A DNA stretch of 64,000 nt from Macrostomum lignano (Eukaryota): the NCBI GenBank assembly GCA_002269645.1, contig NIVC01001414.1, positions 1 to 64,000 on the forward strand, written 5' to 3'. Below are positions 13,291 through 58,200 of this stretch, piece after piece. The notes below the pieces were generated by a model. It worked only from the letters and a program-made list of their open reading frames with translations, was not told the DNA's origin and did no database searches. The translations under genes were made by a program, and so were the position numbers. Each line of letters opens with the position of its first letter. The first letter of the stretch is position 1.

Positions 13291-13752
13291 CAGATTTAGA
13301 GATTGCATTAGAGTATTGCCTGTGACTTCAGATATTTTTGCATTGGTATTCTGATTAAAACCAAACTTGAGACAAACTTTAAACGTTTCTGCTTCAGTTT
13401 TGCGATTGCAGGGGCATCGAAGGAAGCCTCGAAGGCCTGCAGGTCATCAATGTTGGCTTCGTTTACCTCAGAAGGCATCCATCAGCTGGCCAGCGGTTGA
13501 TTCAGTGAATTTCTAAACTACTCATTTCGCAATTCGCCTCCTGGTTTCTGGATCTGCCAAATTCCCAAATCATCATGTCACAGTGCTCTCATCTCCGTTC
13601 TCATTTCGTAGAACTCGTGGAGTTTCCAGCTGTGGGCTTGTGAAAGCACTCACTGACTACTGTTGAGTAGCAGTTCGAGTTTTGTAGTTGAGTCTGAGCA
13701 GAACACTAAATTAACAATACGATAATGTAATGTGCCCCAGCTGTTTATGTTT

Positions 13753-13908
13753 TGTTGCATTCTTTTAAATAAATAAGAATGATATTGATTGTCCAAGGCT
13801 CCTAACTGAGCCAAAACCAAGAAAACAAGTATCGCCCTCTGGCGTGCACCAGGTCTATTTATAGACTTATCAAAAATGGGGTGGCACAAAGAAAAGTCCA
13901 CCGTCACA
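13753..13908 (-). repeat. 3' LTR (156 bp)
   Basis: Reads TGTGACGG...TGCAACA on the minus strand, preceded by purine-rich GGTGGAGGG. Differs from the 5' LTR by 1 substitution and 2 homopolymer indels. Confidence 0.95.
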
Positions 13909-14087: not shown

Positions 14088-16756
14088 TCAGTCACTAGCC
14101 CAGATCCTGCTGAGACCATCGGCCACCGTGTTGCTTTCGCCTGGCTGGTACTGGATCTCGTAGTCATAGCCGGACAGATAGAAGGCCCACCGCTGGAGTC
14201 GTGGGTTGGCGTGGTCCATCTGCAGGTACTGCAGCGGCTTATGGTCGGACTTGATGACGAACCGGCGGCCTAGCAGGTAGTGCCGCAGCTTCTCGACCGC
14301 CCAGCGCACGGCGAGGCACTCCTTCTCGATCGTCGCGTAGCTCCGCTCCGCCGAAGTCAACCGCCGAGATACGAATAGCACGGGATGGATGCCGTCCTCG
14401 AACTCTTGCGTTAGCACCGCGCCGATCCCAGTCTCCGAGCTGGCAGTCTCCAAGGTGAACTGCCGACTGTAGTCCGGCGCGCGCAGCACCGGCTCGCTCG
14501 CCAGCAGAGATTTCACAGTCTCGAAGGCTCGCGTCTGCTGCTCTCCCCAGGCCGCCGTCAGGTCATCGGGTGCCGACTTCTTCGTGAGGTCCGTCAGGGC
14601 CGCCACCTTTTCTGAGTAATCGGGCACGAACCGACGGTAGTGGTTGAGCACTCCGAGCACAGATCGCAGCTGAGCCTTGGTCCGGGGCTGAGCCAGCGCC
14701 GTGATTGTCCGCACTCGGTCCTCGCTTGTACCGATCTCGCCTCCGCCGAGCTTGAAACCCAGGTAGTCAGCAGAGTTGCCGCCCAGGTAGCACTTTCGGG
14801 GTTGCACCGTTAGACCGGCAGCCTTAAGGCGACCAAATACTTCCCTCAGGTCCTTGACGTGCTGCTCGAATGTCGCGCTAAACACGGCGATGTCATCGAT
14901 GTAGGATTCCGCGTTGTCCAGCCCTTGGAACAGCTTGTCCATGAGCCTCTGGTACGTCGCGCTGCTGCAGTTTAAGCCCATGGGCATCACAGTAAAGTGA
15001 TACAGCTTGCCGCAGGCCGCGAAAGCCGTCAATCGCTTTGAATCCTCGTACAGTGGAATTTGCCAGTAGCCCTTGCAGCAGTCTAGCTTAGATATGAACT
15101 TGGCCTTGGCGACCCGCTCCAGTAGGTCCTCGATGTTCTTCATCGGATAGGAGTCGAAGGCCACCAGCTCATTCAGCGCCTTGAAGTTGACAGTGAACCG
15201 GACTGAGCCGTCCTTCTTGGCCACCAGACAGACCGGGGAGCAGTAGTCACTGTCAGATGGTTCGATCACCCCGAGGTCCAGCATGCGTTGAATCTCCTCT
15301 TGGAGCACCTGCCGATGCGCCTGCGGCTCCCGTCGCGGCCGGATGCGCACTACGCGGTCAGATGTCGTCCGGATACGGTGCTCCACTAGGTCAGTCCTGC
15401 CCGGGATCTCGCTGAAGACGCCCGCGAAGTCCTGCACCAGCTGCAGGAGACGATCTCTCTCGGCCGGTGTCAGATGTTTGGACAACTCAGGAGCACTCGT
15501 AGCTGCCGCTGGAAGCTGCATCAAAACCGCCTCTCGTGAATTGTACTTCTTAAGCAGGTTGACATGAAACGTGTTTGTCGCAGGGCCCATCCGAATCCGG
15601 TAGTTCACATCGCTGCACCTCTCCAGTACTTCATAGGGACCGCGCCATTCAGCGTGAAGCTTCTTGGATGACGATGGCAGCAGCAGCAGCACCTGATCTC
15701 CGGGCTGCAACTCTCGTTCCCGCGACTGCCGGTCGTACCAGAGTTTCTGACGCTTCCGTGCTAGCTCTTCGCTGTTCCGTGCCGCTTCCTGGCCAGCCCG
15801 CAGTCGGTCTCTCTGGGCCAGCACGAACGAGATGATGTCCTTCTTCTCTTCGGAGAGCTGCTCATCCCAGGTCTGCCGCAGTAGATCTAGCGGTCCCCGC
15901 ACAGTGCGTCCATACAAAAGTTCGAATGGGGAGAAGCCAGTTGTTTCGTTGGGCACCTCCCGAATGGCGAACAGCAGATACGGTAGGTACTGGTCCCACT
16001 TCTTTTTCTCGCGAGCTGGTAGTCTCCTCAACATATTCTTGAGAGTGCCGTGGAACCTCTCCACCAACGCCTGGCTTTGCGGATGGTACGGCGTCGACTG
16101 GATGCCCTCGACCCCGGTACACCGGTACAGGGCCTGCAGCAGTGCTGATGAAAAGTTAGTACCCTTATCGCTCTGGATCTCCCTCTGGAATCCGGTCCTC
16201 ACGAAGCAGTCCACCAATGCCTTCGCTACGGACTCAGCGTCGATCTTTCGCAGCGGGACTCCTTCGGGGAATCGAGTAGCCGCATCGATAATCGACAGGA
16301 TGTACTGGTGACCACTCGCAGTCCTCGTATACGGTCCACTGATATCGATGATAACTTTGGTGAAGGCCTCCTCCACTCCAGGCACTTGGACTAGTGGTAC
16401 CTTGTGATTGCCTGGGACTCGAGCCGTCTTCTGACACTTGTCGCACGTTGCTACGAAGTCCTTCACGTCCTTTGTCATCGTTGGCAACCAGAATCGCTGT
16501 TCCAGTCGTTGACAAGTCTTCCTTGTTCCCAAGTGGCCAGCGAATGCACTCTCGTGGGCCTGGGACAGCGCCGTAGCACGCAGAGCCTTCGAAGCACCAG
16601 TTGGTCCTCTCCAGCTGCTTGATGCCGAAACAGTCTGCCGCGGCTTTCCTTCACCAAGTCGTTGGTTTGTACCGCTGCTTGCAACTCCTTGTCGTCTTGT
16701 AGGGCCGCCTCGTAATCCAATGTTATAGGGCGCATTGCAGTTTCTTGTCTCGTTTT
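14088..16756 (-). CDS. pol: Retrotransposon pol: integrase (HHCC, DDE, GPY) - reverse transcriptase - RNase H
   Basis: AHESAFAGHLG...CDKCQK; IIDISGP / QSDKG / LVERFH; WRGPYEV; SPVCLVAKKDG, YIDD, YLG; VIKSDHKPL, ADGLSR. One frameshift near 16591 (DQLVL[P]KALR). RNase H TDAS motif reads ETASS. Confidence 0.95.
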
Positions 16757-16800
16757 GTTGTAAGTAGAAGGCATGAGGGGCTTTTGGGACAAAATTTTTC

Positions 16801-17105
16801 ACGTCCTCCATAATCCCATTAAATCCATCCATATTATCCCCGACAGAATCAGAAAAAAGGGGGGTCGCACTCGCTCACAAAACGTCCTCCATAATCCCAT
16901 TAAATCCATCCATATTATCCCTGACAGAATCAGAGCATAACAAGTGTCCTACTTGCTCCGAAAACTTCGAACATAATCCCATTAAATCCATCCATATTAT
17001 CCCTGACAGAATCAGAAAAACTCGCTCACAAAACGTCATCCATAATCCTCCTAACCTATCCTCCTTCCTCCACGACAGAATAAGAGCATAACAAGTGTCC
17101 TACAT
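16801..17105. repeat. Subterminal array: ~45-bp core CATAATCCCATTAAATCCATCCATATTATCCC(C/T)GACAGAATCAGA with alternating spacers
   Basis: Cores at 16809, 16890, 16972 and a degenerate one at 17041. Confidence 0.9.
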
Positions 17106-17238
17106 CATCCACTGACATCCACCCATAGCATATTCGAAACAATCAGAAAATAATCTGCATTCTTCTCCCCACATTCAATTTGCAACGTGCTACCACATCC
17201 CTAAAACTTTAAATCCCCTAACCCAGGGTCCTTACCCT

Positions 17239-17508
17239 TTGAAAAAAATTAAATTCTCAATAAAAATGTTTCCAGTTGTCTCTCCAGGTTCCTATTATAC
17301 TCAGCCTCATCCATTGTACAAATCCAAGTACCAATGCAAACTAGAATGCAGCGAGTACATGAGAAAATATTGGCCCGACGTTGATATCAATGTCCCTAAT
17401 ATTAATCTAGCTCTCCAAAGACACTGGTTTCATAAGTATGGAGTACCCTACGTAAAAGATTACGATAGCTATTATAACTTTGCAGAAATCATTAAGCAAT
17501 TGCGTTAA
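17239..17508 (+). CDS. Small ORF with weak resemblance to the C-terminal half of RNase T2 (probably catalytically dead)
   Basis: MRKYWPDV...LQRHWFHKYG...YYNFA aligns by eye to the T2 pattern L.KYWP...FW.HEW.KHG...YF..A; no IHGLWP motif. Confidence 0.4.
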   Translation: MKKIKFSIKMFPVVSPGSYYTQPHPLYKSKYQCKLECSEYMRKYWPDVDINVPNINLALQRHWFHKYGVPYVKDYDSYYNFAEIIKQLR

Positions 17509-17724
17509 AAAAACAGAAAGGCCAAAATCCTTTTCACTTTGGCCTCGCCCGAGGCCGAAATCGTTTTCATTTTGGCCTCGTGCGAGGCCGAAATCGTTTG
17601 CATTCTGGCCTTCCCTCGAGACGGAATTCTTCCTCGGCTGGGCTCAGTTAAAGTGAAAATCTCTCTCCCCCCCACGCGCGCTCTCTCTACCCCCATATCT
17701 TTCAAGAGCCTTCCCAAGTCATTG

Positions 17725-18174
17725 TTAGGAGCGCACAAAATAAACCCGGCTCCCTTGCGTTCGCCCTCTCTCCCCGTGCACTCGCCCTCTCTTCCCAAAC
17801 ACTTCACCCTCGACGTCCATTCCCAACCCCAGCTTTTTCTTACCAAAAATAACAGCTTTAACTAGCTTCCGAGCGATCGATTCCTTCCACCCGCGTGAAA
17901 TCCCCATATTGTCGAGTCTCCTGAGCATTTCTTTGTCCCAGCGATTCTTCTCCTCAGGAAAATCTCTATATTTAACGTCGTGCCACATGCAGACAGAGTC
18001 TAGCTCGTTCACAGGCTCATGCCCAGGATGTGGATTATTGTTTTTATCTAACTGTATTTCAAGTGGATTCAAAGGCCCGCAATATTTATAGCCGGGAAGT
18101 GTCCAGCCTTTGTTTGGATGAGGAAGCTTTTCTATCAGTCCATGTGAATCTATTTTACCACCAGAGCGCTGCAT
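17725..18174 (-). CDS. Parvovirus VP1-type phospholipase A2 (Polinton/adintovirus PLA2), ~149 aa
   Basis: WTLPGYKYCGPLNP Ca-binding loop, catalytic HDVKY, downstream D. ATG at 18174 in A-rich context; the ORF-track extension to 18417 overlaps the integrase. Confidence 0.9.
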   Translation of the reverse strand: MQRSGGKIDSHGLIEKLPHPNKGWTLPGYKYCGPLNPLEIQLDKNNNPHPGHEPVNELDSVCMWHDVKYRDFPEEKNRWDKEMLRRLDNMGISRGWKESIARKLVKAVIFGKKKLGLGMDVEGEVFGKRGRVHGERGRTQGSRVYFVRS

Positions 18175-18204
18175 TATTTTATTTAAAATTTTCTTTTTAA
18201 ATAA

Positions 18205-19245
18205 ATGACAGATCAGAAACTTAAAAAACTCTACTACAGCGACAAAGGATTCTTTGTAGGTAAAAATGCCGTTAGTAAACTCATGGAGCTGAGTAAGGAA
18301 CCAAAAGCTACAGTAGAAAAATGGCTCTCTAAGCAGGCTGTCTTTCAAGTCTGTTTCCCACCAGTAAAATTTGAAAGGCCCCATTTCAGTATTTATAAAC
18401 CTAATGAGGCACACCAAGCAGATCTTCTGTTTCTCCCCAATGACTCGGGCTACAAGTATGCTCTCACAGTAATAGACATTGCTTCCAGATATAAGGAAGC
18501 TCGCCCACTCAAGACGAAGAAGTCAGAGGTTGTTGCCAGCGCACTGCAAGATATTTATAAAAACTCTCCGCTCACACACCCCCAAACCCTTATGACCGAC
18601 CCGGGTAAGGAATTCATGGGTGCAGTGAAATCCCTTATGGAAAAGAAAAACACAGAGATTCGCTATGGCAGAACAAACTTGCACAGAGACCAGGCTTTTG
18701 TGGAAAGATTCAATCTAACTCTAGCCAAGAGGCTATTCACTAAGCAGCAGACAGCTGAAGAGCTGAAACTAAAAAGTGGTCAGTACTATTCAAAATGGAC
18801 AGACCGCCTCCCCACTGTTATAGAGCAACTGAACAATGAAGTCACACGCATGACTGGATTGAAACCGTCCCATGCAATTAAACAAGACACTGTCGAACTT
18901 AAGGCAACTCATAGAACAGACAACAACACGACAACCCCACACAACACACACAACACAAAACACACCTCTAACTACCCTAAGCTACCGGGAGTTGAATCAC
19001 CATACATACTGACAAACTCTGAGTTTCTACGGTTTTTATATCTACCTGGAGAGCTAGAGAAGGACACTAAAAGAAGAGCTACAGATCCATACTTCAGCCT
19101 TGATGTACATAAAATAGACAGACATTTTACCTCCGACTCCGGTGACTATTACTTTTTATCTCAGGCCTTTAACCCTAAATCCCCCACGCGGTCATTCACT
19201 AGAGCTGAACTGCTAGTGATACCAGCTGACACAGAAATTAATTAA
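18205..19245 (+). CDS. int: Polinton-type DDE integrase, 346 aa
   Basis: HQADLLFL...YALTVIDIASRY...LMTDPGKEF...QAFVERFNLTL; intact ORF. Confidence 0.93.
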   Translation: MTDQKLKKLYYSDKGFFVGKNAVSKLMELSKEPKATVEKWLSKQAVFQVCFPPVKFERPHFSIYKPNEAHQADLLFLPNDSGYKYALTVIDIASRYKEARPLKTKKSEVVASALQDIYKNSPLTHPQTLMTDPGKEFMGAVKSLMEKKNTEIRYGRTNLHRDQAFVERFNLTLAKRLFTKQQTAEELKLKSGQYYSKWTDRLPTVIEQLNNEVTRMTGLKPSHAIKQDTVELKATHRTDNNTTTPHNTHNTKHTSNYPKLPGVESPYILTNSEFLRFLYLPGELEKDTKRRATDPYFSLDVHKIDRHFTSDSGDYYFLSQAFNPKSPTRSFTRAELLVIPADTEIN

Positions 19246-19261
19246 AATATTAAAATAAAAA

Positions 19262-19720
19262 ATGACAAAGATTGAAACCAGAACCATCAATAAACTCAAT
19301 AAAATCATTGAATCAAAGAAACCAGGTCTTATATCAATTAAAGGTATCAAAGTAAAAATCGATCCCACGCAGCAAATAGTTCAGTGTAATGAACAAAGAC
19401 ACAGCATCACAGATGAAAAGTCAGGAGGAATCCTACCATTAGCAGCTCTTATTCCGATCATTGCAGGCGCTGTAAGTGCCGCAGGTGGTGTAGCTGGAGG
19501 TGTAGCAACTGCTGTTAAAGCTGGAAATGATAGGGCCCACCGGCTAGAATTGCAAAAGATTGCAAGAGATAAAGGTATAACAATTAAGGCAGGAGAGGAC
19601 TGCCCTGAGGGCTGCCCCGATCGTGATGATTTTGAGCATGAAAATTCTGTAAGCAAGTCTGACATTGTCAAAGCTATCATGACACTACACAATGCTGGGT
19701 TTACAATAATGCGCATGTGA
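19262..19720 (+). CDS. Adenovirus pX/pre-mu-like virion core or membrane-active protein, 152 aa
   Basis: KSGG|ILPLAALIPIIAGAVSAAGGVAGGVATAV closely parallels adenovirus pX (RGG|ILPLLIPLIAAAIGAVPGIASVA). Confidence 0.65.
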   Translation: MTKIETRTINKLNKIIESKKPGLISIKGIKVKIDPTQQIVQCNEQRHSITDEKSGGILPLAALIPIIAGAVSAAGGVAGGVATAVKAGNDRAHRLELQKIARDKGITIKAGEDCPEGCPDRDDFEHENSVSKSDIVKAIMTLHNAGFTIMRM

Positions 19721-19843
19721 TGAGGTTTAAAACCCCACTTTATCCAGCTTCATAAACCAAGCGCTACTTATAGGATGTAGAAACAGTTCAACTTTTCTAT
19801 CAGGGTAGTAACCCTCAAATTTTTTTTTTATTTTAGAGAAAAA

Positions 19844-22800
19844 ATGCCAAAAGCCAATCCAGCAAAATATTTAGTCAACAAATATTTTTCAAAAGGCGTC
19901 TCATTTCAAGACAAAAGTAATTTACTAAGAGAAGCATGTAAACAAAAGTTTAACACCGACCCTGGTCACCTGGGAAGCTATGAAAAACAGTTGGAAATCA
20001 TCAATCAATTAGAATCCAACCAGTATGCGCCTATACAAAATCCTGCAAAGGAACACCAAGAGAGGAGTCGCAACTTAGTTAACAAATACGAAACTCTCAC
20101 TGGTGAAAAAGCAAAGTACCCACAAAATAAGCAGGAACAAGAGAAATTAGAGCAATTAATCCATTTAAAAGAGTCGGAGCTTGCCATTGAAGAGATTAAT
20201 TTTGCACAGAGAAAGTTTACAGAACATTACATCGAGTACACAATCCCAATTAACGACACCAACGGTACCACCGCAAACATCTACGACCATAAAGACAGCA
20301 TCCAATCAGTTGTTGATCACACACTCAAAACAAGCAAGAGCTTTAAACTACAGATATCATTCAAGATTGCATTTTATATGCCTGCAAAACCCACTGAGCA
20401 TCTCGAGTATTACATGACAACAAAGGCAAAGCCATTCACCCCTACAGACACACTGGATCCTTTCCTTCAAGATGTCACTAAGAAAATTGAAGCGTTTACA
20501 TCCAGAGGTTCTGGATGGGTCGTAGGAGGGATTCAAAGAGCGACTGTCATGGTCATGAAATATGACCCACTTAAAGCCTCCTCTTATATAGAGCTCCCAC
20601 ACAAGCTAGCCGGCAAAAAAGCTTGCATAAATGTTAAAAATAAAGACAATTGCTGTGCTCTATGGGCAGTTCTTTCTGCACTTCTTCATGATAGTGTCCC
20701 TCACCACCCTGAAAGAACCTCAAATTATCAAAATTATTTCAACTACTATCTCATTGAATGCGAAAAGAAGGGAATCAGGTTTGACAAAGGAGGCTTGGCG
20801 ATTTCTCAGATCCCAAAGCTGGAAGAGGTGTTTAATAACAAAATTAGAATCACAGTCTTTGAGTGGAGTGAAAAAACTGAGAAAGTTCAACCGGTCAGAT
20901 GTAGCAAAGACGTTTTAGATCCTGAGGGGAAAAGGCGGACTGAAGTGGATCTTCTAGTGATTGGTAATTTACTAGAGGAGGCTCACTATGTTTGGGTTAA
21001 AGATCTTTCAAGACTCATTCACAAGCAATTGAATAATCATCACGAGGCTGTTGCCATCTGCCGCTTGTGCCTTAAGCATTACAGTGGACCTGAACGCTTT
21101 GAAAAACTAGCAGAGCATGAATTATCATGCGAGGATCACCCGACCAACTGCTCTCTTCCTTCAGCTGAAGAGAAGTATCTCCGGTTTAAGAACTATCACA
21201 AGATGGAGAAGCTCCCATTTGTTGTATATGCTGATTTCGAATGCTCAATCATGCCAGAAACACAAAAACAAACTCAAAAACAAAAACAAACTCAAACTTG
21301 AAAACAAACTCAAACTCAAAGACATGTCCCCAATTCAGTAGCATATGCCTTTATTATTACAAAAGGACTTGTTGAGTATAATTATTTCTTTGGACAGCAG
21401 TGTGTGGAGCAGTTTATTGCCAGAATGTTAGAGTTGCAAAGAGTGATTAGCACCCTTCAACCTATTCCAATAAGTATGTCTGAGGAGGATGAAAGCAATT
21501 TCCTATCAGCAACTCATTGCCACATCTGCAGGAAACAGTTAACTTGCACTGATTTTAAAAACCCCACCGTTAGGGACCACTGCCACTTTACTGGGAAATT
21601 TAGAGGTGCAGCGCATAACACCTGTAATCTAAAGCTAAAATCGAACATTCATGATCTAACGATATTTTGTCACAACGCAAAGAACTATGACATGCATTTA
21701 ATAGTTGAAAAAATTGGCATGATTCCAGACATACACCTTGATTGCATCGCAGAGAACAAGGAGAAGTTTAAGTGTGTTGATATTAAACAGGATAATTCGG
21801 GTACAGGTAAAATAAGACTGAAGGATTCATATCAATTTCTAGCTGCCAGTCTAGACGAACTAAGCAAGAATCTAAAAGATGAACAATGTACATATACAAA
21901 GATGTTTGCAAGTAAAATTAACAACAGTGATGAATCATTTAAACTTTTAAGAAAGAAAGGCTTCTACCCCTATGAAAATATTACTGGGTATCACGTATTT
22001 GAAGATGGTTTACCACCACAAGAAAAGTTCTTTTCAAAGCTAACAGACTCTGTAATCTCTGACAAAGACTATGAGCACGCGAAGCATGTCTATAATTACT
22101 TTAATTGTCAAAACTTTTTCCAGTATCACCTGCTTTACCTCTTCACAGATGTGTTTCTGCTGGCCGATGTGTTTGAAACCTTCAGATATACCTGGTACAC
22201 AGCATATGGCCTCGATCCAGCACATTATGTGTCTCTGCCTGCCACTAGCTGGGAATCTTTGCTTAAAATGAAATGGGATCAAGATCCAGATTGGTACATT
22301 GAACTTCTTACAGACATTGACATGTACAATTTTGTCGAATCGTCAAAGCGAGGGGGATCTCAATTTGCACATAGATATGCAAAAGCAAACAATCCCTACA
22401 TTGAATCTTACAATAAGGAGCAGCCCTCAAACTACATTACTTACTTGGACGCTAATAATCTCTACGGTTGGGCGATGAGTCAAGATCTTCCAGTTAGAGA
22501 TTTTCGATGGCTACCCTCATCAGAACTAAAGTGGGACTTTTCATTGGCTGCCATTTATGAGGTTGATGTTTACATTCCACCAGAGCTTCACGATTATTTC
22601 TCTGATTTTCCACCCTTCCCAGAGAACATAAAGTGCCCGAAAATAATCGAAACTCCCAATGATAATAATGGAACTTGGCACCTGTCAGGAACAGAAAAAG
22701 AACATACAGAGAAACTAACACAGAATCTAAACAACAAGACACGTTACAAAATCCATTACAAACTGCTTCAGTATTTTATCTCACTTGGTTGCAGGGTCAC

Positions 22801-23692
22801 CAAAGTTCACAGGGCTCTTACATTTACAGAGGAAGCGTGGATGAAACCCTACATTGATAAGAACACCCAGTTTAGGACCAAAGCAACCAACGACTTTGAC
22901 AAGAACCTCTTTAAGTTAGCCAACAACTCTGTCTATGGCAAGACTCTTGAGAATGAGCGGAAAAGAACAAACCTGAAACTTGTTACCTCATCAGAGCCTG
23001 CTGTTATTCAGGCAAATATTTCAAAGCCAACGTTCAAAGAACTCCATATCTTTAATAGCTACTTGGGTGTGATCATATTTTACAAAACCAAGGTGACGTT
23101 GCGCAAGCCGATCTATACAGGTGTCACTGTTCTCGACGAATCAAAACGTTTGATGTACCAGTTCTTCTATGACATGAAGCAGCAGTACAAAGATAAAATG
23201 AAACTCTTATACACTGACACGGATAGTTTTATTATGGACATTCAAACAGAAGACATTTATCAGGACATGCTGCAGCAAAAAGATTTGTTTGACTTGTCTG
23301 AGTATGATGAATCTTTCAGGACACAGAATGGCGATCAAGTGTTTGACGCCACTAACAAGAAAGTGATTGGGAAAATGAAGGACGAGATTGCTGGTGACAT
23401 AATCACTGAATTCATTGGGTTGAGAGCAAAGTCATATTTTTAAAATGTGAGTCGTCAGACCCAATAAAAAATCAAAGGGAATTCCGAAACGCGTCGTTAG
23501 GAAGGAAATTAATGAAGCTGAATACAGAGACGCCTTGAATTGCAACAAAAAGACATCACATGAGTTCTCAAAGCTACAATCTAAAAACCATATTATTCAC
23601 ACAATTCAGCAAAAGAAGATTGGACTGTCAGGTGCAGATAACAAGAGATTCATTTTGATGACAATATCAACAGTCTACCGTTCGGGCACTGA
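19844..23692 (+). CDS. polB: Protein-primed family B DNA polymerase (pPolB), interrupted
   Basis: ExoI YADFEC, endonuclease-VII-like CHIC...RDHCHFTG...HNTCN, ExoII FCHNAKNYD, PolA YLDANNLYGWAM, PolB KLANNSVYGK, PolC YTDTDS. In-frame TGA at 21299-21301. The C-terminus (KSKGIPKR...DNKRFI..LPFGH*) is recovered across three apparent 1-nt deletions, ending at 23692. Confidence 0.95.
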
Positions 23693-23771
23693 AGATTAGG
23701 TTTAGGAGGTGGAGATTAGGTTTAGGTTTAAGAGAAAGTTTAATAAACCTCATTAAAAATGACATAAAAAA

Positions 23772-24173
23772 ATGACAACAAATAACTTTCTTGAAGATTT
23801 GGCTAACGAACTGGAAATCCCAAACTTTAGAGGAATATTTATGAGGGACACTCTGCCTGATTTTCCTCTAAGAAAAGAATGCGGCATCATGAACTTTGAC
23901 ACCACCGATAAGCCAGGATCTCATTGGGTTTGCTGGGTGATTGATCCTGATCGCAAGCACAAGTGTTATTACTTTGATAGCTATGGGAAGGCAGTACCAG
24001 AAGAGCTAAGAAATTATATGAAGGGGAAAAATAATAAAAAAAATTATCGCTCAGACTTTATTCTCCAAGGTCTTAGCAGTGATATTTGCGGTGAGCTGTG
24101 CATGACTGTTTTGTATGCAATGACCAAAACACGAAAGACCTACAAGGAAATTATTCTTGGCTGTGTTTCATAG
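23772..24173 (+). CDS. Adenain-type (adenoviral/Polinton) cysteine protease, 133 aa
   Basis: GSHWVC (His), YFDSYG (Asp), LQG...DICGELC (Gln, Cys). Confidence 0.9.
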   Translation: MTTNNFLEDLANELEIPNFRGIFMRDTLPDFPLRKECGIMNFDTTDKPGSHWVCWVIDPDRKHKCYYFDSYGKAVPEELRNYMKGKNNKKNYRSDFILQGLSSDICGELCMTVLYAMTKTRKTYKEIILGCVS

Positions 24174-24176
24174 GGT

Positions 24177-24771
24177 TCATTGTGCATTCCTCGTTGTACT
24201 TCTCGTTGTCCTTCTTTCCGCATAATGTTGAAGAACTTTCTCGAGTTCATTTCTCAGCTGACTCATGTCATCAGTACCGACCATGTTCAAGTTCATTCGA
24301 ATTGATTGTTCATAAAGATCCTGAATGGTTTTGAACTCATCCTCTGAAATGAACTTATCCTCGATTGCCCTTGAAATGTACCCTATGATTGAAGTGTGCA
24401 CCCCTTTCTCTTTTACTTGCTTCTCCTGTAGCTGCTTTAGTTTTTTTCGCCTGTTTCGCGCTAATGCTCCAGTAATTGCTGAAATAAGTCCACATGCAGC
24501 ACCCACAGAGCCGAGTGGGATTGCGATTGGGGCTGTGATGACTGGCAACGTTGAGACAGCTGCAGCAGACCCAGTTAGAACAGACACAGACCTAGAAGCA
24601 TATTGCTATAGTCGAAAAATTTTCAATGTCATCTCGCATTTTTCTAATCTCCACCAGTCGAAATTGTTGAGAGTTACAAGTAATAACAGGGTAGAGTTTT
24701 TGCTGCTCATATTGAGGTGCACTAGGTGCTGTGGGAACGTTCGGATCATAAAGAGAATTTTGAGCATCCAT
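24177..24771 (-). pseudogene. Polinton-associated hydrophobic/coiled-coil protein with N-terminal PTAPSAP and LYP motifs; frameshifted near 24600
   Basis: My translation from ATG 24771: MDAQNSLYDPNVPTAPSAPQYEQQKLYPVITCNSQQFRLVEIRKMRDDIENFSTIAI. After a frame change it continues SVLTGSAAAVSTLPVITAPIAIPLGSVGAACGLISAITG...ISRAIEDKFISEDEF. Confidence 0.7.
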
Positions 24772-24806
24772 TTTTAAGGAAATTTTTAAAAAAATAATCG
24801 ACTACT

Positions 24807-25780
24807 AGTTGGTGGTGTTAGACTTCTTGTGGGGCCTCCGCAGTTGAAGCAGCTAATCTTAGGCTTTAGGCTTTGCGGTCTGAATCGTCCTTTGTTTATC
24901 CATAGCATTGGACGCCGTCGCCCCCTCAGAGGTCTCTTGCTCGGGTGTCCTGGTGTTCCGCCGCTTTTGTCGCTTTTTCTTGCCATTTGCGTAGTCATCG
25001 GCCAGTTTCGCAGCCTCTTTGATGTCCTTCGGTTTTCTCTCTCGCATCCACACCTGGAGTCCTCTTGTCAGAGAGTCCGTAAACTGCTCCAGAAGCACTT
25101 TCTGCCTGACGATGGAGTCGCCACTTATCAGTTCCTCTCTCTGATCCTCGTCTAGCCCAGCTGTCATCCATCGGACAAACAGGTCTTCCAGCTTTGTCGC
25201 GAACACCTGGAAGGTCTCTTCAGGCGCCTTCCGCAAAGACCGAAACCGCTGTCGCGTAGGTCTCCTCGCCGATGTTGTATCTCGCTAAGATGGTCGCCTT
25301 TGCCAAGTCGTCGTAGTCCGCGCTCGCCGCTGTCGTCAGACTGTGGAATGCGCTCTGCGCAACGCCCGTCAGTACGGTGCCAGCCGAATCGTCCACTCTG
25401 ACTTTTGCCATCCACACGATGCCGCTGCCCTTTCGAAGGTCATTAGGAATGCCTCGATGTCATCAGAGTCCGTCAGCTTAAACAGCTTGGGCTCCGCTGC
25501 TTGTGGTCGTGGCTTAGACTCGGCCAGGAGCTTCGTGAACTCCGCTTGCTGACGAGCCAGTTGCTCCAGGTAGAATGCTGACTGTCTTTCTTGCGCGCGA
25601 GTCATTTCTTGTAGCTGCTGACTCTGGTGCGTCAGGAGCATCTTCATTGTCTCCATCAGATTCGCGCCCTCCAGCGTAGCTGAATCTTGGATTCCGCTGG
25701 CTTCTTCAGCATTGTCTTCGGAGCCTTCTCCGAGGCGCCCCGTCTTGGGAACGCAGGTTGTACGGGTGCTTCGAGCCCGC
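24807..25780 (-). CDS. gag: Retrotransposon gag (capsid/SCAN-like domain, truncated zinc knuckle), several frameshifts
   Basis: PKLFKLTDSDDIEAFLMTFERAAASCGW...RLAPY; LTGVAQSAF...DYDDLAKATILARY; KVLLEQF...WMRERKPKDIKEAAKLADDY; CFNCGGP. Confidence 0.88.
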
Positions 25781-25793
25781 ACCGCTGCCACCA
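25776..25793 (-). promoter_or_regulatory. Primer binding site complementary to the tRNA-Leu 3' end
   Basis: TGGTGGCAGCGGTG directly follows the 5' LTR; animal tRNA-Leu ends ...CACCGCTGCCACCA. Confidence 0.85.
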
Positions 25794-25951
25794 TGTTGCA
25801 TTCTTGTAAATAAAATAAGAATGATATTGATTGTCCAAGGCTCCTAACTGAGCCAAAACCAAGAAAACAAGTATCGCCCTCTGGCGTGCACCAGGTCTAT
25901 TTATAGACTTTATCAAAAATGGGGTGGCACAAAGAAAAGTCCACCGTCACA
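25794..25951 (-). repeat. 5' LTR (158 bp)
   Basis: Near-identical to 13753-13908; followed by the PBS on the minus strand. Confidence 0.95.
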
Positions 25952-26139
25952 TGTTTGCACTAATCTGATTCACCACAAAAAATAAGTTTCTAATTCGAAA
26001 TTCGCAATCAATAAATGGAGTTGGCTTGCAAAAAAATATTATTCTTTTTTGGAATTTTGTTTGCATCCGTTTTGCAAGAGAATCCGCAGTCGCGCACTGA
26101 CTGCTTTTAGTAGCCACGCACTGACATTGCGGCAGTTCT

Positions 26140-26633: not shown

Positions 26634-29600
26634 ATGGCAGAGCGAGGGAAGCCACCATTTCCTAACAAAAAAGTAAGTAAAGTTCAAGTAAGAAAACTAA
26701 AAGTATAATCATATTTGTAGTCTTGACTGCAGTTGCGGAAACTCACTCACATGTTTGAATGTGCAGCTTGGGTGCCACAATTGCAGTTGCAGGAACTCAC
26801 TCACATGTTTGAATGTGCAGCTTGGGTGCCTCAATTGCAGTTGCAGGAACTCACTCACATGTTTGAATGTGCAACTTGGGTGTCTCAATTGCAGTTGCAG
26901 GAACTCTCTGACATGTTTAAATGTGCAGCTTGGGTGCCTCAATTGCAGTTTCAGGAACTCACTCACATGTTTGAATGTGCAGCTTGGGTGCCTCAATTGC
27001 AGTTGCAGCAACTCACTCACATGTTTGAATGTGCAGCTCGGGTGCCTCAATTGCAGTGGCAGGAACTCACTCACATGTTTGAATGTGCAGCTTGGGTGCC
27101 TCAATTGCAGTTGCAGGAACTCACTCACATGTTTGAATGTGCAGCTTGGGTGCCTCAATTGCAGTTTCAGGAACTCACTCACATGTTTGAATGAGAAGCT
27201 TGAGTGCCTCAATTGCAGTTGCAGGAACTCACTCAGCCGGACCCCAGCAACCGGGCAAGCGTCGGATCCTCACCAGCCGATCTCCAGACTCTCGCTCACG
27301 ACGTCATCCAAGGTGACTTCGGCCAGGTGCGGCGGCTGGCAACGCGCCAGCTGGTCACCAGCGCTGATGCAGCTCGTCGGACCGTCCTCATGCTGGTGGC
27401 CGACGCTCCTGAGACTCCCGTGCACACTGAAAAGTGCATATTGTACTTATTTGAGCTGGGCGCGAACCCCAAGGCGGCTGACGCGAACGGCGACACGGCT
27501 GCGCACCTGGCAGCCCGGCGGGACCACCTGCGGCTGCTGACGCTGCTATCGTTCGATGCGAAGTGGCTGCGGAACGACAACGGCGCCACTCCGCTGATGG
27601 AGGCGGCGCGGACTGGAAGCTGGAGATGCGCCAAGCACCTGCTGCACCTGCTCAGGCAGAGAAGGTTTAACGAGTGCAAGGAGCACGAAAACTCGAAGAG
27701 ATCGCGGCTGCTCAGACTGAAGGATCGCGAGGGTCGGACGGCGTCAGACCTGGCGAGGCTCAGCGGCCACTCAGAGCTGGCCAGCTACATCGAGCGGTGA
27801 GTGAGCAGTTCGCTGCTGTGTCCATCAAGTTTTGCAGCATTCGGCTGGCTATGGTGGCCAGAGCTGCAGTCTCAGGCCAGCCAATCAGAGCCAGTCAGCT
27901 GAACTTGTCTCTGTCTGACTGCTTGATGGACGAGAGCTGTGATTGGCTGGCTGCCTCCTAGCCAATGGGGTGCCGGTTGATCTCAGTCGAGAATGGAAGC
28001 TGTAGGGCCTCGGTGTGCAGTGAGAGTGTGTAGGTTGAGCTGCAGATGGAGAACTGGGAGGCTGTGCGTGAGTGCTTTGTGAGACATTGTGAGATGGAAG
28101 GAAACTCATGCTGCAGAAATGGAAAAGAGCTGCGTGTGAGAAGTCGGATGCGCTCTCGCCAATGCTGATTGTTGCAGAGCTGCTGCAGTCTTCTTGGAAA
28201 CTCCATCTGCGAGCTGCTCAGATAATCAGGAAATTCAGTTATCTAAATTTATTACCAAAATTCTATTGTAGAACTATAAACTTTTTAATGGCTGTCAAAG
28301 TTGTAAAATTTTAGAAACATTTGCTGCTCATTTTGGCTGTTGCAGGGAGATGCGGCTGGTTGTGAGCAAAGGTGGCAGGATCTTCGGCCTGACAGCCCAG
28401 GTGAGCGGAATCTGCGGTGCCGATGCGGCTGCAGCTGAGCAGCTGTGCTCAAATTTCCCGCTCGCCTTTGCAGGAGGAGGCGGATCGACAGGAACTGCAG
28501 CAGCTGGCCGAGGCGGGCGACTCGGCGGGGCTGCGGCGAGCGGCGACCCGCGGCAGCTGCGACCTGCCTGACAGAGATGGTTACACCGCGTTGATGTTGG
28601 CAGCTCACAACAGCTCGTGCGGTGATGAGGCTCTGTGGGAGCAGCTGGTGCAGCTGGGTGATCCCACATGTGCTGATACACGGGCTGAAATTTGCCTGCA
28701 CCATGCAGCCGGACCTGGAAACTCTGCTGCAGCCTCCGCTCTGCTGGCTGCCGGAGCCTCCGCCAATGTCAGGGAAGATCTGTGTGACTTTACGCCCCTC
28801 ATGGCGGCAGCCTTTGCGCCCCCCACCACCGCCGCCGCATTCGGTCGGGTTCTGCTGGACTCAGGGGCGGATTGGAGCCTGAAGGACATGCCGGGCAGGA
28901 CTGCGCTGGATTTGGCCACACAGGAGGGAAAGAGCGAACTGGCTGAGCTGCTGCGTGGGTGAGTTTCCATGGCGACTGAGAATGTCTCTCTGACTTTGAT
29001 TTATCATTGATAAAAATTATGCTGTAATTTATGATTGAATATTGAGCAGCTGACTGCAGTTGCTCAGAGTGGGCATTTTTACATTTTTGTAGTTTAAATG
29101 GGCAGCAGACACTGACTGAGCTTCATTGAGGAAGTTTGCATAGGTAATTTAATTTAAAATTTAATTTCATAGGTAATTTAAGCAAAAGGAAGAAATGAAG
29201 CACAGAGCATGATCTTCAACCTGAATTCCTCTAACTTTAAACTCCGCACTGCCTACTTAGGTACGGCGGCAAGATTTACTTCAACGAGCCTCTGGCACTC
29301 CCGTGAGTTCCTTCAGCACACACAGCTACAGCACACACAGCTACAGCACACACAGCTACAGCACACACAGCTACAGCACACAGCTACAGCACACAGCTCC
29401 AGCACACACAGCTACAGCACACACAGCTACAGCACACACAGCTACAGCACACAGCTACAGCACACACAGCTACAGCACACAGCTACAGCACACACAGCTA
29501 CAGCACACAGCTACAGCACACACAGCTACAGCACACAGCTACAGCACACACAGCTACAGCACACAGCTACAGCACACACAGCTACAGCACACAGCTACAG

Positions 29601-30756
29601 CACACACAGCTACAGCACACAGCTACAGCACACACAGCTACAGCACACAGCTACAGCACACACAGCTACAGCACACAGCTACAGCACACACAGCTACAGC
29701 ACACAGCTACAGCACACACAGCTACAGCACACAGCTAGATCATGCTAATTATCCCTCATTGCCTCAATTCGCATCCCCTCAGCCCCCCGTTCCTGGAGCG
29801 CTGGGACAAAGTTCGCCTCATCGGTCGCGGAGGCTCTGGCAAAGTCCACGAAGTTCGAACTGACACGGGCGTCACATGCGCTGCCAAGACTCTCAAACTG
29901 CCTGTGCAGCTCGGTGATGACCAAACCCCTGTGAGCAAGGAGATCCACAGAGCTGTCGAGAGCGAGAGAAACCTGTGCCGACTGCGGCATCCCAACATCG
30001 TCAGGTTCTTGCACATCGCTCAGCCGAAGCCCGCCAAAGTCGTTGTGTTCATGGAGCTGCTGGACGGCCGAAGCTTGGAGAGGTTTATCGGCAACAAGCC
30101 GCTGGACGAGCCAAAGATTCGAGACTTCAGCGAGCAGGTGAGCATTGTGCATCCTTGATGCTCCTGTTCCATGTTTTCATGAATGATGACTGCTCACTGA
30201 CCGACCGCTCGCAGATCTGCAGCGCGCTGCTCTACCTGCACAGCCAGCAGCCGCCCGTGATCCACAGAGACATCAACTGCTCCAACATAATTGTTCGTGC
30301 TGACAAGACCCGAATCAAGCTGATCGACTTCGGCCTGTCAATTAAGCTGGAGCAGTCAGTCAGCCACATCTCAGGCTCCACTCCGTTTCCCAAAGGCACT
30401 CTGAACTTCATGGCGCCAGAGCTGCTCGGAGCGGGACAGTCGGAGAGCGACAGCGTGCAGTACAGCAGAGAGTCGGACATCTGGGCGTTCGCTGCTCGGT
30501 CTTCCAGATGGCGTCCGGCGCGAGGCCGTTCGCGAACGCCAGGAGCTTCTTAGAAATGGCCCAGCTGATCGACAGGAGGGGCGCCCCCGCCCTGCCGGAC
30601 GGCCGGTCCGCAGAGCTGCAGGACTTCTACAGCCGCTGCACCACCAAGGACCGCAGGAAGAGAAAGTCAGCAGGGGAGCTGCTGGAGCACGAGTTTCTGA
30701 CGGGTGGGAAGCTGAAAACGCGATTGCTGGGCTCGCTTTTCGGTGTAAGGAAATGA
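26634..30756 (+). CDS. Ankyrin-repeat Ser/Thr protein kinase. Exons 26634-26672, 27225-27796, 28346-28400, 28474-28958, 29783-30137, 30215-30756
   Basis: All introns GT-AG with consistent phases (0,2,0,2,0). Ankyrin motifs GDTAAHLAA, GATPLMEAA, GRTASDLA, GYTALMLAA, FTPLMAAA, GRTALDLA. Kinase GRGGSGKV, AAK, alphaC Glu, HRDIN, DFG, GTLNFMAPE, SDIW. One 1-nt deletion near 30491 (F[G]CSVFQMASG). Confidence 0.88.
26727..27235. repeat. 54-bp tandem array (~9 copies) that includes the exon-2 splice acceptor
   Basis: Unit TTGCAGTTGCAGGAACTCACTCACATGTTTGAATGTGCAGCTTGGGTGCCTCAA; single copy in the paralogue at 42750-42810. Confidence 0.93.
29321..29737. repeat. (CACAGCTACAG[CA])n 11/13-bp minisatellite in intron 4 of the ankyrin-kinase gene
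   Basis: Same unit as 45596-46204. Confidence 0.95.
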
Positions 30757-55200: not shown

Positions 55201-58200
55201 CAACCTGATGGAGAACAGCGCGTGACTCCTGGAAGACTGCTGGTTCAGCTTGGTGGCAGCCAGGTGCTGATTGTGTTTGCCTAGCAGCGCCAACCTGAAG
55301 GCCTCATCAGCGCTTGACACCGGCAGGCAGCGAAGGCCTTTGACGTACACGGAGCCCGTGCGGTCCGCCCGCAGCTCCAAGGCCGTCCTGCTGGGCGCCC
55401 GACGGCTCAGCGGCTCCAGCAGGTCGTAGACGATTTCGTTGTAGATCTCGGCGCAGGACACCCACACTGAGCAGCGGCTGCCGACTTTGCCAGCGGCTGT
55501 GGTGTCTGCGGCATCAGCTGGGAGCTGCGGACTCGGGCTGGGGAGCTGCAGAGCCGCTCGCCTGCGAATGTTTCAGCGTTTGAGCAGAGATGGCTGCTGG
55601 GATGAAGCTGGGATGGCTGCGGCTTCAGGGTGAGGGCCAAGGACTCAAGAGGAACTGCTCAGACTGTGCAGGGACTGCTCAAAGGAGAACTGCTCAGACT
55701 GTGCAGGGACTGCTCAAACGGGAACTGCTCAGACTGTGCAGGGACTGCTCAAAGGGGAACTGCTCAGCCTGTGCAGGGACTGCTCAAAGGGGAACTGCTC
55801 AGACTGTGCAGGGACTGCTCAAAGGGGAACTGCTCAGATTGCAGGGACTGCTCAAAGGGGAACTGCTCAAACTGTGCAGGGACTGCTCAAAGGGGAACTG
55901 CTCAGCCTGTGCAGGGACTGCTCAAAGGGGAACTGCTCAGACTGTGCAGGGACTGCTCAAAGGGGAACTGCTCAGACTGTGCAGGGACTGCTCAAAGGGG
56001 AACTGCTCAGACTGCAGGGACTGCTCAAAGGGGAACTGCTCAGACTGTGCAGGGACTGCTCAAAGGGGAACTGCTCAGACTGTGCAGGGACTGCTCAAAG
56101 GGGAACTGCTCAGACTGCAGGGACTGCTCAAAGGGGAACTGCTCAAACTGTGCAGGGACTGCTCAAAGGGGAACTGCTCAGACTGTGCAGGGACTGCTCA
56201 AAGGGGAACTGCTCAGACTGCAGGGACTGCTCAAAGGGGAACTGCTCAGACTGTGCAGGGACTGCTCAAAGGGGAACTGCTCAGACTGTGCAGGGACTGC
56301 TCAAAAGGGGAACTGCTCAGACTGTGCAAGGAATGCTCAAAGGGGAACTGCTCATAAACAATCGTGATTGATGATGTTTGCCACCCCAGCCTCACCAGTC
56401 CCCAAGCTGGGCATCGCAGGCCTCAAACCGACTCAATACTGCTCGAGTCTCCGCCAGCGCCGCCCTGGCCTCATCCGGCGCCAGCGGGGCAGCCTCGCTG
56501 AAGCTGACCGGCCGGAACGGCAGCAGCTGCTCGGCGCCGCTCAGCTGACCGTCAAGGCGCCGGAACAGGTCGGCGAGGGCGCGCGGCAGCAGGCCGGGAG
56601 ACTGAGGGGTGCCCTGGGAAAATAACGGAGGCGCTAATTAATGCCAAGTTTAACAAAGTTTCAAGCCGCGCACTGACTAATCGCAACCGCTTTTGCTTAA
56701 CTTTGCCTGAATTATAGTTAAACATACGCTAACACGGGGGTTGGCAAAGTTTTATATTGCAAAAATGCCACATGAAAAATCTAGCACATGACGGCAGGCC
56801 GGGCCCGAGGATTGAGGAGGAAAGAAGGGAGAGGAGAGGAGAGAAGGGAGGAGAGGAGAAAAGGGAGAGGGGAGGAGAGAGGAGAGAAGGGAGAGGAGAG
56901 AAGAGAGAGGAGAGGAGAGAAGGGAGAGGAGAGGAGAGGAGAGGAGAGAAGGGAGAGGGGAGGATAGAGGAGAGAAGGGAGAGGAGGGGAGAGAAGGGAG
57001 AGGACAGGAGAGAAGGGAGAGGAGAGGGGAGAAGGGAGAGAAGAGAAGAGAAGGGAGAGGAGAGGAGAGGAGAGGAGAGGAGAGAAGAGAAGGGAGGAGA
57101 ATAGAAGAGAGGAGAGAAGAGAGGGGAGAAGGGAGAGAAGAGGAGAGAGGAGAGAAAGGAGAGGAGAGGAGAGAAGGGAGAGGAGAGGAGAGAAGGGAGA
57201 GGAAATTGAACAGATTTGAGATGAGACACAGACCCTGAACGGAAGTTTCGAAGGACCAAAAGGCCGGGTAGAAACTTGGCGGGCCGCGTATGGCCCGCGG
57301 GACGGAGTTTGCCGACCCCTACTCTAAATTAATTGATAATTGAATACACCTGGCCTAATGGGCAGATGTGCAACCGACAGCTCAGCCGCAGCTATTGCGC
57401 GGCGCATCTAAAGGCTGCGTACGGCTGTTCAGTCCAAGGACTGGGGGTCGCCACACACACCCTCAATTACCCCAGCTAATGCTGGCACCCATTTTACAGC
57501 TGGCTCAAGGATACAAATTGTTCCGAGTGGGTCGAGAATCGAACCCCCGACCTTCAAGTCGTGAGTCAGACACTCTGATCACTGAGCTACAACCCCAGTT
57601 TTGATTTTTCAACTTAAAAGTGGCCAACACTGCATAGAAGACTCACCTGCACTGTAAAAGTCTTTCCCGAGCTTGTCACCCCATAGTTGAACAGCAATCC
57701 ACTGCTCAGATCGCCCTCAGCCAGCTGGCGCACCGTCTCAGCCACCGTGCCCGCGTACAGGCCCTGCTGATCTGCCGTCTCATCGAACACGCCACTAAAT
57801 GTGAACCTGTTGCTCACCCGCTCGCCTCCACCGCCTCCTCCCCCGTTTGCTGAGGCAGAATTCGATAATTTTGACTCGTCCAATCCAGTATTCGCCTGCT
57901 GACTCTGCAGCGTTGAGGGCTTCTGGCCACCAGCCAGCCGTTAGCGGAGTCTGCGGTGAAGCAGCGGCCGGTGGGGCTGCTGAGGTCCAGGCCGGCGCAG
58001 GCGGTACAGCTGAGCTGCTCGTTGGGCGTCACTGGGCGAACTCGCAGGTACACCTGGGGGAGAGGATGGAAAGGGGTTGAAATACCTGATTAACTACTTC
58101 AGGGTGTCTTTGAGTCGTTACTTCTGAGACACCCTGGATGCGTTACACAGTTAGAGAACTACAGTTTTACAATCAAAACTCAGAGTAGCCTATATTGAAC

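Follow-up and report, generated by a model that had tools for sequence, protein, structure and literature searches.

Can a Polinton lose its capsid genes while keeping those for virion maturation and entry? This question is raised by a segment in the 64-kb stretch of DNA analysed here (the window), which the first-pass annotation had described as a capsid-less Polinton, being either a deletion derivative or a satellite that uses a helper capsid, possibly the Gag particle of a retrotransposon. The segment proved to be the left 8.06 kb (16763–24822) of a multi-copy family ~16–18 kb long, and with a probability of about 94% in our estimate it is what is left of a full Polinton nested in a gypsy element after a single deletion of the right arm together with ~599 bp of gypsy sequence.

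Extent and gene content of the Polinton segment

Comparison with siblings elsewhere in the genome shows that the segment starts with the left terminus AGTAGA and a left terminal inverted repeat with subrepeats of ~81 bp (16763..17502, plus strand), of which an inverted copy is found at the right end of the siblings. An 80-aa ORF within the repeat (17266..17508, plus strand) has no Pfam match and is present at both sibling ends. The annotated gene list, namely PLA2, integrase, pX, protein-primed DNA polymerase B (pPolB), adenain and a membrane protein, was borne out by the ORFs and by a Pfam scan of 13 window proteins, with matches to all of these families except for the membrane protein, which has none. 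The PLA2-like gene is of the parvovirus type (17725..18174, minus strand; PF08398, E = 7.8e-14) and is followed on the plus strand by an rve integrase (18205..19245; PF00665, E = 5.6e-9) and by a protein with a segment like adenovirus pX (mu) (19262..19720; PF05829, E = 4.7e-7). The pPolB gene (19844..23699, plus strand) matches PF03175 with its C-terminal piece (E = 1.2e-16) and no Pfam family with its N-terminal 485 aa; in the window it is read in three frames, with breaks near 21300, in common with a twin contig (C3577, see below), and near 23445, in the window only.

The adenain-type maturation protease (23772..24173, plus strand) is a marginal match to PF00770 (E = 4.5e-4), its score of 20.4 bits being just under the curated cut-off of 21.3, and His and Cys motifs are visible in its translation. 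The last gene (24177..24771, minus strand), whose ORF is split in the window, encodes a conserved hydrophobic, putative membrane protein that matches no Pfam family at cut-off, including no gasdermin and no cupiennin family. It has six uncharacterised homologues with 42–51% identity, and in the ESM Atlas it falls, with recognition below threshold, into unnamed and mostly viral clusters, which can serve as a lead only.

That ATPase, capsid and penton are lacking, as had been noted, is real: when these proteins of the family were compared by tblastn with the whole 64-kb window, the best E value was 0.68. No pair of terminal repeats came out of inverted-repeat searches of the window, and the copy has neither a right terminal repeat nor a target duplication.

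A capsid-bearing Polinton family

When the 8-kb segment was searched against its own genome, the best 20 of 1117 matches lay on 19 contigs, namely the window, the twin contig and 17 siblings, the latter matching at 93–96% over 4.5–7.2 kb and starting with the identical AGTAGA terminus amid unrelated flanks. The family order in the left half is left repeat, a variable accessory region, PLA2, integrase, pX, polB, adenain and membrane protein, and in the right half a 243-aa ORF (U243), the ATPase, ORFs of 129 aa (U129) and 404 aa (U404), ORFs of 428 aa and 287 aa, and the right repeat. ATPase, capsid and penton are all present at a coverage of at least 94% in 11 of the 17 sibling contigs, where presence means tblastn coverage rather than open frames, there being frame breaks in many copies. 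Two siblings (C744 and C212) have part of the capsid gene only, and four are unscorable (three end at a contig edge; in C3589 the stretch stops early in a nested copy).

Both termini were found in 11 copies, of which eight have a perfect 6-bp duplication, one a duplication matching in five of six positions and two none. Six of the 11, free of large secondary inserts, are 15.6–17.9 kb long, and the ends match each other as terminal inverted repeats over 260–700 bp at 88–98% in nine of nine sibling pairs compared. None of the 11 two-ended copies holds the window's gene set between its ends. C744 (12.5 kb) is internally deleted with both termini present, and has lost adenain, the membrane protein gene, penton and part of the capsid gene. 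Copies of the family are found nested in each other, one insertion differing between the two assembly copies of the window locus, and elsewhere in the genome (C1652, C3945 and C276) there is an 11.3-kb palindromic derivative, with apparent inverted arms of 4.7 kb, that has two capsid modules and no polymerase.

A second set of loci was chosen by likeness to the right-hand breakpoint. From 25 matches on the Polinton side of the junction, three already known by position to be capsid-positive and two near contig ends were omitted, and all of the 20 examined run on into the 243-aa gene. The ATPase is present in 18 of the 20 and the capsid gene at 95% or more in 13; the capsid gene is partial in four (two at contig ends) and lacking within the examined stretch in three (one a contig end). 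When capsid and penton together served as a DNA query, 40 of 40 scored matches were at least 95% identical (the best 40 of 468).

What are the genes of the right half? The 266-aa ORF of the siblings is a predicted A32/FtsK packaging ATPase (PF04665, E = 3.6e-6) with Walker A present. The 428-aa ORF matches the double-jelly-roll family PF21738 with E = 8.4e-5, which is below cut-off. In its alignment ten out of ten members match this family (best E = 1.8e-16), and a search of PDB sequences with the alignment gave no matches; judged by its sequence, the ORF is the double-jelly-roll major capsid protein. The 287-aa ORF adjoining the capsid gene has no Pfam match. A profile of 106 sequences compared with the PDB gave 11 matches and placed two penton proteins and P1v1 first among them, though weakly (E = 0.0056–0.029), and a shallow profile of 14 sequences gave one unrelated match and no penton. 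The ORF is probably the penton; in the ESM Atlas it, too, falls into unnamed, mostly viral clusters with recognition below threshold, again as a lead only.

With its predicted polB, rve integrase, terminal inverted repeats, 6-bp duplications, ATPase, capsid and maturation protease, the family fits the definition of a Polinton. Barreat and Katzourakis (2021, PMC8097293) take as intact those Mavericks that have the conserved ORFs together with terminal repeats and a 6-bp duplication, at a length of 12.7–24.6 kb, a range within which the two-ended copies of 15.6–17.9 kb lie, and most genomic copies are described there as degraded, 2,166 of them without discernible terminal inverted repeats. Measured against that account, the terminus AGTAGA is not exactly (AG)3 or (AGT)2, the gene order departs from the vertebrate two-module plan, and the window copy is a one-ended fragment. 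In the part of Starrett et al. (2021, PMC8502044) that deals with the Alpha adintoviruses (Mayetiola class), a PLA2 with a pX domain is given as characteristic of the virion module, and the present family likewise has a PF03175-type polB, adenain, an rve integrase, a packaging ATPase, a predicted hexon-like gene and a probable penton-like one, besides PLA2 and pX as accessory genes. The N-terminal OTU-like domain of an Alpha adintovirus polB has no counterpart among the Pfam matches here, the N-terminal 485 aa giving none. In its predicted gene set the family resembles this class; however, whereas Alpha adintoviruses have a PLA2X fusion (PMC8502044), its PLA2 and pX are unfused, being separate ORFs on opposite strands. 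A literature search, chiefly of non-subscription main texts, yielded no account of this family, nor of any Polinton satellite lacking a capsid.

The dN/dS values of six gene pieces, compared with 13–15 siblings, are 0.13–0.29. They are below 1, which the first-pass annotation had proposed as a check, but they record selection on the capsid-bearing family and not on the window copy, and do not separate the satellite from the deletion reading. The other part of that check, whether relatives repeat the capsid-less gene set, came out negative, as the 11 two-ended copies without it and the 11 of 17 siblings with all three genes testify.

The gypsy host and the right-hand junction

The Polinton segment is nested in a minus-strand gypsy LTR retrotransposon, which is bounded by a 5-bp target site duplication (13748..13752, matching 25952–25956). 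Within it lie, all on the minus strand, the 3′ LTR (13753..13908), a pol remnant with integrase, RT and RNase H (14088..16762; PF17921, PF00665, PF00078 and PF17917), a gag remnant with similarity to SCAN and Ty3 capsid (24823..25794; Pfam and sibling comparison) and the 5′ LTR (25794..25951; LTR comparison), the two LTRs being 98.1% identical over 158 columns. LTRs and 5-bp duplication are coherent over the entire 12.2 kb. In the pol remnant, which is 97–98.5% identical to gypsy siblings and whose integrase-RT-RNase H frame is open in the window, integrase precedes RT, an order that we take to be Gmr1-like.

The host element itself is ~4.75 kb long, with 156-bp LTRs, a gag containing SCAN and, in the siblings, the order protease-integrase-RT-RNase H. 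A gag search gave 17 candidates, all of them scored, of which 15 are neither the window nor its twin; the ten examined are uninterrupted and without a Polinton insert. Where the window holds the Polinton, nine of these ten have ~599 bp of gypsy sequence and one has ~990 bp, and translation of two siblings showed that the segment lacking in the window is the end of gag plus a DTG aspartic-protease motif. Unlike its gypsy/Ty3 siblings, the window copy has 8 kb of Polinton in place of the protease and the end of gag, its gag being cut inside a zinc-knuckle-like motif.

The left junction (16762/16763) falls exactly at the Polinton terminus, within gypsy pol. The right junction (24822..24823) was placed by three-way sibling comparison: the closest Polinton siblings (L071 and L072) equal the window through 24822 and then go on as internal Polinton sequence, and the gypsy siblings align from 24822 on, so that the two matches overlap by one base. 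Missing on the Polinton side are U243, ATPase, U129, U404, capsid, penton and right repeat, and on the gypsy side the ~599 bp. The element had originally been taken to end at 24806; its real end is 24822, which is a deletion junction and not a terminus. The ACTACT at 24801–24806 was rejected as right terminus, since it is internal in L071–L074; five of 26 ACTACT-motif sites read as internal like that of the window, one of the five being the twin. A BLAST end at 24828 was set aside as a chance extension on the basis of the three-way comparison.

The twin contig is 99.5% identical to the window over the Polinton segment, and as both its left flank (97.9% over 5.7 kb) and its right flank (98.8% over 3.0 kb) agree with those of the window, the two represent the same locus. 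They differ by eight substitutions and 33 gap columns, 25 of the latter beside an identical base, and also by one separate Polinton insertion, and in the twin another 600 bp spanning the left junction are gone. Among the best 40 of 126 matches in a search with the junction, only these two span it, 13 matching on the gypsy side only and 25 on the Polinton side. Since among these matches the junction occurs only in the window and its same-flank twin, the chimera has not spread.

History of the locus

A full Polinton of the Maverick/alpha-adintovirus type, ~16–18 kb long, would have inserted in pol of a resident gypsy element, between its protease and integrase regions at 16762/16763, the Polinton integrase presumably generating a 6-bp duplication as in the siblings. 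Later one deletion, reaching from the Polinton interior (24822) into gypsy gag, would have taken ATPase, major capsid, penton, the right terminal repeat and the right target duplication together with ~599 bp of gypsy. The order of the two events, insertion before deletion, is what we infer, as is end-joining repair at the one-base overlap. Family gene order, breakpoint, lost gypsy segment and single locus are direct observations. Both Polinton termini serve as replication origins and integrase substrates; with only one terminus and a broken polB, the remnant can neither excise nor replicate as a Polinton does, nor be packaged as one. Of the two alternatives originally offered, the deletion derivative is correct, as siblings carry the missing genes past the breakpoint.

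The gypsy-Polinton chimera could instead be mobile as cargo of gypsy Gag particles, retro-mobilised in trans, and owe its entry functions to PLA2 and the membrane protein. Such a chimera would consist of a part of gag, the antisense Polinton left arm with PLA2 and membrane genes on the sense strand, and integrase-RT-RNase H. If true, this would open a route by which an env-less retrotransposon could gain entry functions or viral membrane-active genes, and both LTRs, the gypsy target duplication, the open integrase-RT-RNase H frame and the location of PLA2 and membrane genes on the gypsy sense strand are all compatible with it. We nevertheless consider it highly improbable: there is no second site (17 of 17 gag candidates scored; ten examined without insert), the 13 gypsy-side junction matches stay on that side and only the same-flank twin spans the junction, gag is truncated, the protease has been deleted, and the twin has lost a further 600 bp at the left junction. 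Equally hard to credit is the variant in which the LTR-bounded chimera gives a transcript that intact gypsy siblings copy in trans, while being too recent or too rare for a second site to be seen here. None of the public runs listed is an RNA run carrying the sequence.

The proposal of a satellite with a helper capsid would be met in another way by a non-autonomous Polinton subfamily that has retained its genes for replication, maturation and entry and relies on full siblings for capsids. Potential helpers are indeed abundant (all 40 scored of the capsid-plus-penton matches, the best 40 of 468), internally deleted two-ended copies such as the 12.5-kb C744 exist, and the family genes have dN/dS values of 0.13–0.29. 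This does not make the window copy a member of such a subfamily, for which there is very little probability left: it is without the right terminal repeat that mobilisation in trans would need, its polB carries a break common to window and twin, C744 has lost other genes, the gene set of the window recurs in none of the 11 copies with both ends, and the same deleted structure was not found at independent sites (two of the best 40 of 126 matches, both one locus). It should be noted that the sets scored were the best 20 of 1117, 40 of 126 and 40 of 468 matches, so that a divergent capsid-less subfamily could lie outside them. As found, the relatives are essentially full Polintons, the window copy is a one-off truncation and the capsid-less, gypsy-joined form was found at one locus only, which speaks against a satellite and leaves the idea of a helper capsid unsupported, that of a gypsy Gag particle included. 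A misassembly in which a Polinton copy was joined to a gypsy copy is likewise a very unlikely source of the junction. Assembly indel noise (33 gap columns versus eight substitutions between window and twin) would be in its favour, and at 24400–25200 no listed piece among the contigs of four of 24 listed public runs bridges the junction, all showing the ordinary gypsy continuation; such contigs, however, drop rare variants and say nothing either way about one locus among the many copies of a family. Against it stand the presence of the same junction on two contigs, distinct in substitutions and in a separate Polinton insertion, gypsy LTRs and 5-bp duplication that are coherent over 12.2 kb, and a left junction precisely at the Polinton terminus.

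The nested insertion with its single deletion also accounts for the apparent retention of a maturation and entry module. These genes were not selectively kept: they sit left of the breakpoint in a fixed order. The retained genes are simply those on that side, and their presence does not call for selection on an entry module. The locus is a case of ordinary decay of a nested insertion and not a new capsid-less parasite, and is as such of little import. It does illustrate that ACTACT inside an element can be mistaken for a Polinton terminus, and that a tidy "entry module" in a capsid-less Polinton can arise from gene order and one deletion. The locus stems from a large family of capsid-bearing Polintons, equipped with PLA2 and pX, that has recently expanded in a single animal-type genome.

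Variation in gene content among the copies

In the sibling copies L002-L020, which were taken from other contigs of the same genome, the accessory region between the left repeat and the PLA2 gene is variable in length (0.4-2.5 kb) and carries unrelated ORFs of 200-260 amino acids, none of which had a Pfam match at the cut-off. The corresponding interval in the window is only ~170 bp long. At the right end of L028 (contig C2715) the ~82-bp subrepeat of the terminal repeat has been expanded into >15 tandem copies. A 12.5-kb copy, C744:17689-30155, has retained both ends, with a target duplication matching at 5/6 positions, and is internally deleted, the genes for adenain, the membrane protein, U243 and penton and part of the capsid gene being missing.

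A palindromic derivative carrying capsid genes

A derivative of the family of 11.3 kb, found at C1652:28604-39932 (L056/L057), is palindromic, with two termini and a 6-bp target duplication. Its inverted arms (2 x 4.7 kb, 99.6-99.9% identical) each contain penton, capsid, U404 and U129, and its centre holds a single ATPase gene and U243; polB, integrase, PLA2, pX and adenain are all absent from the 11.3 kb. It is the mirror image of the window Polinton, capsid only and without polymerase. The palindrome is also present at C276:289398-300645 and on C3945 from 57496, and because the flanks are common to all three contigs, these copies represent one locus. In the search of the own genome the internal junction was found in 3 of 40 scored matches, and the centre is reversed in C1652 relative to C276 and C3945. 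The derivative could be a product of replication or repair, or an artefact of assembling long inverted repeats.

Other features of the window and signs of mobility

A small repeat of ~260 bp (window 57333-57597) recurs at 11 loci, some of them within or next to several of the Polinton siblings and others in unrelated flanking DNA; it is probably a small mobile element. Ankyrin-repeat-like ORFs and a protein-kinase-like ORF in pieces, assigned from translations only, lie at window 27390-28962 and 29742-30756; they are likely exons of host genes.

Family members have also inserted into one another: the Polintons at C5061:9217-26369 and C1684:3567-19325 lie within polB and adenain of other copies, each with a perfect 6-bp duplication. 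Moreover, the twin contig C3577, which covers the same locus as the window, contains an additional Polinton terminus (L040, C3577:12667) at the equivalent of window ~33046, where the window has none. This insertion, a difference between two assembly copies of the locus, suggests that the Polinton family has been active recently.
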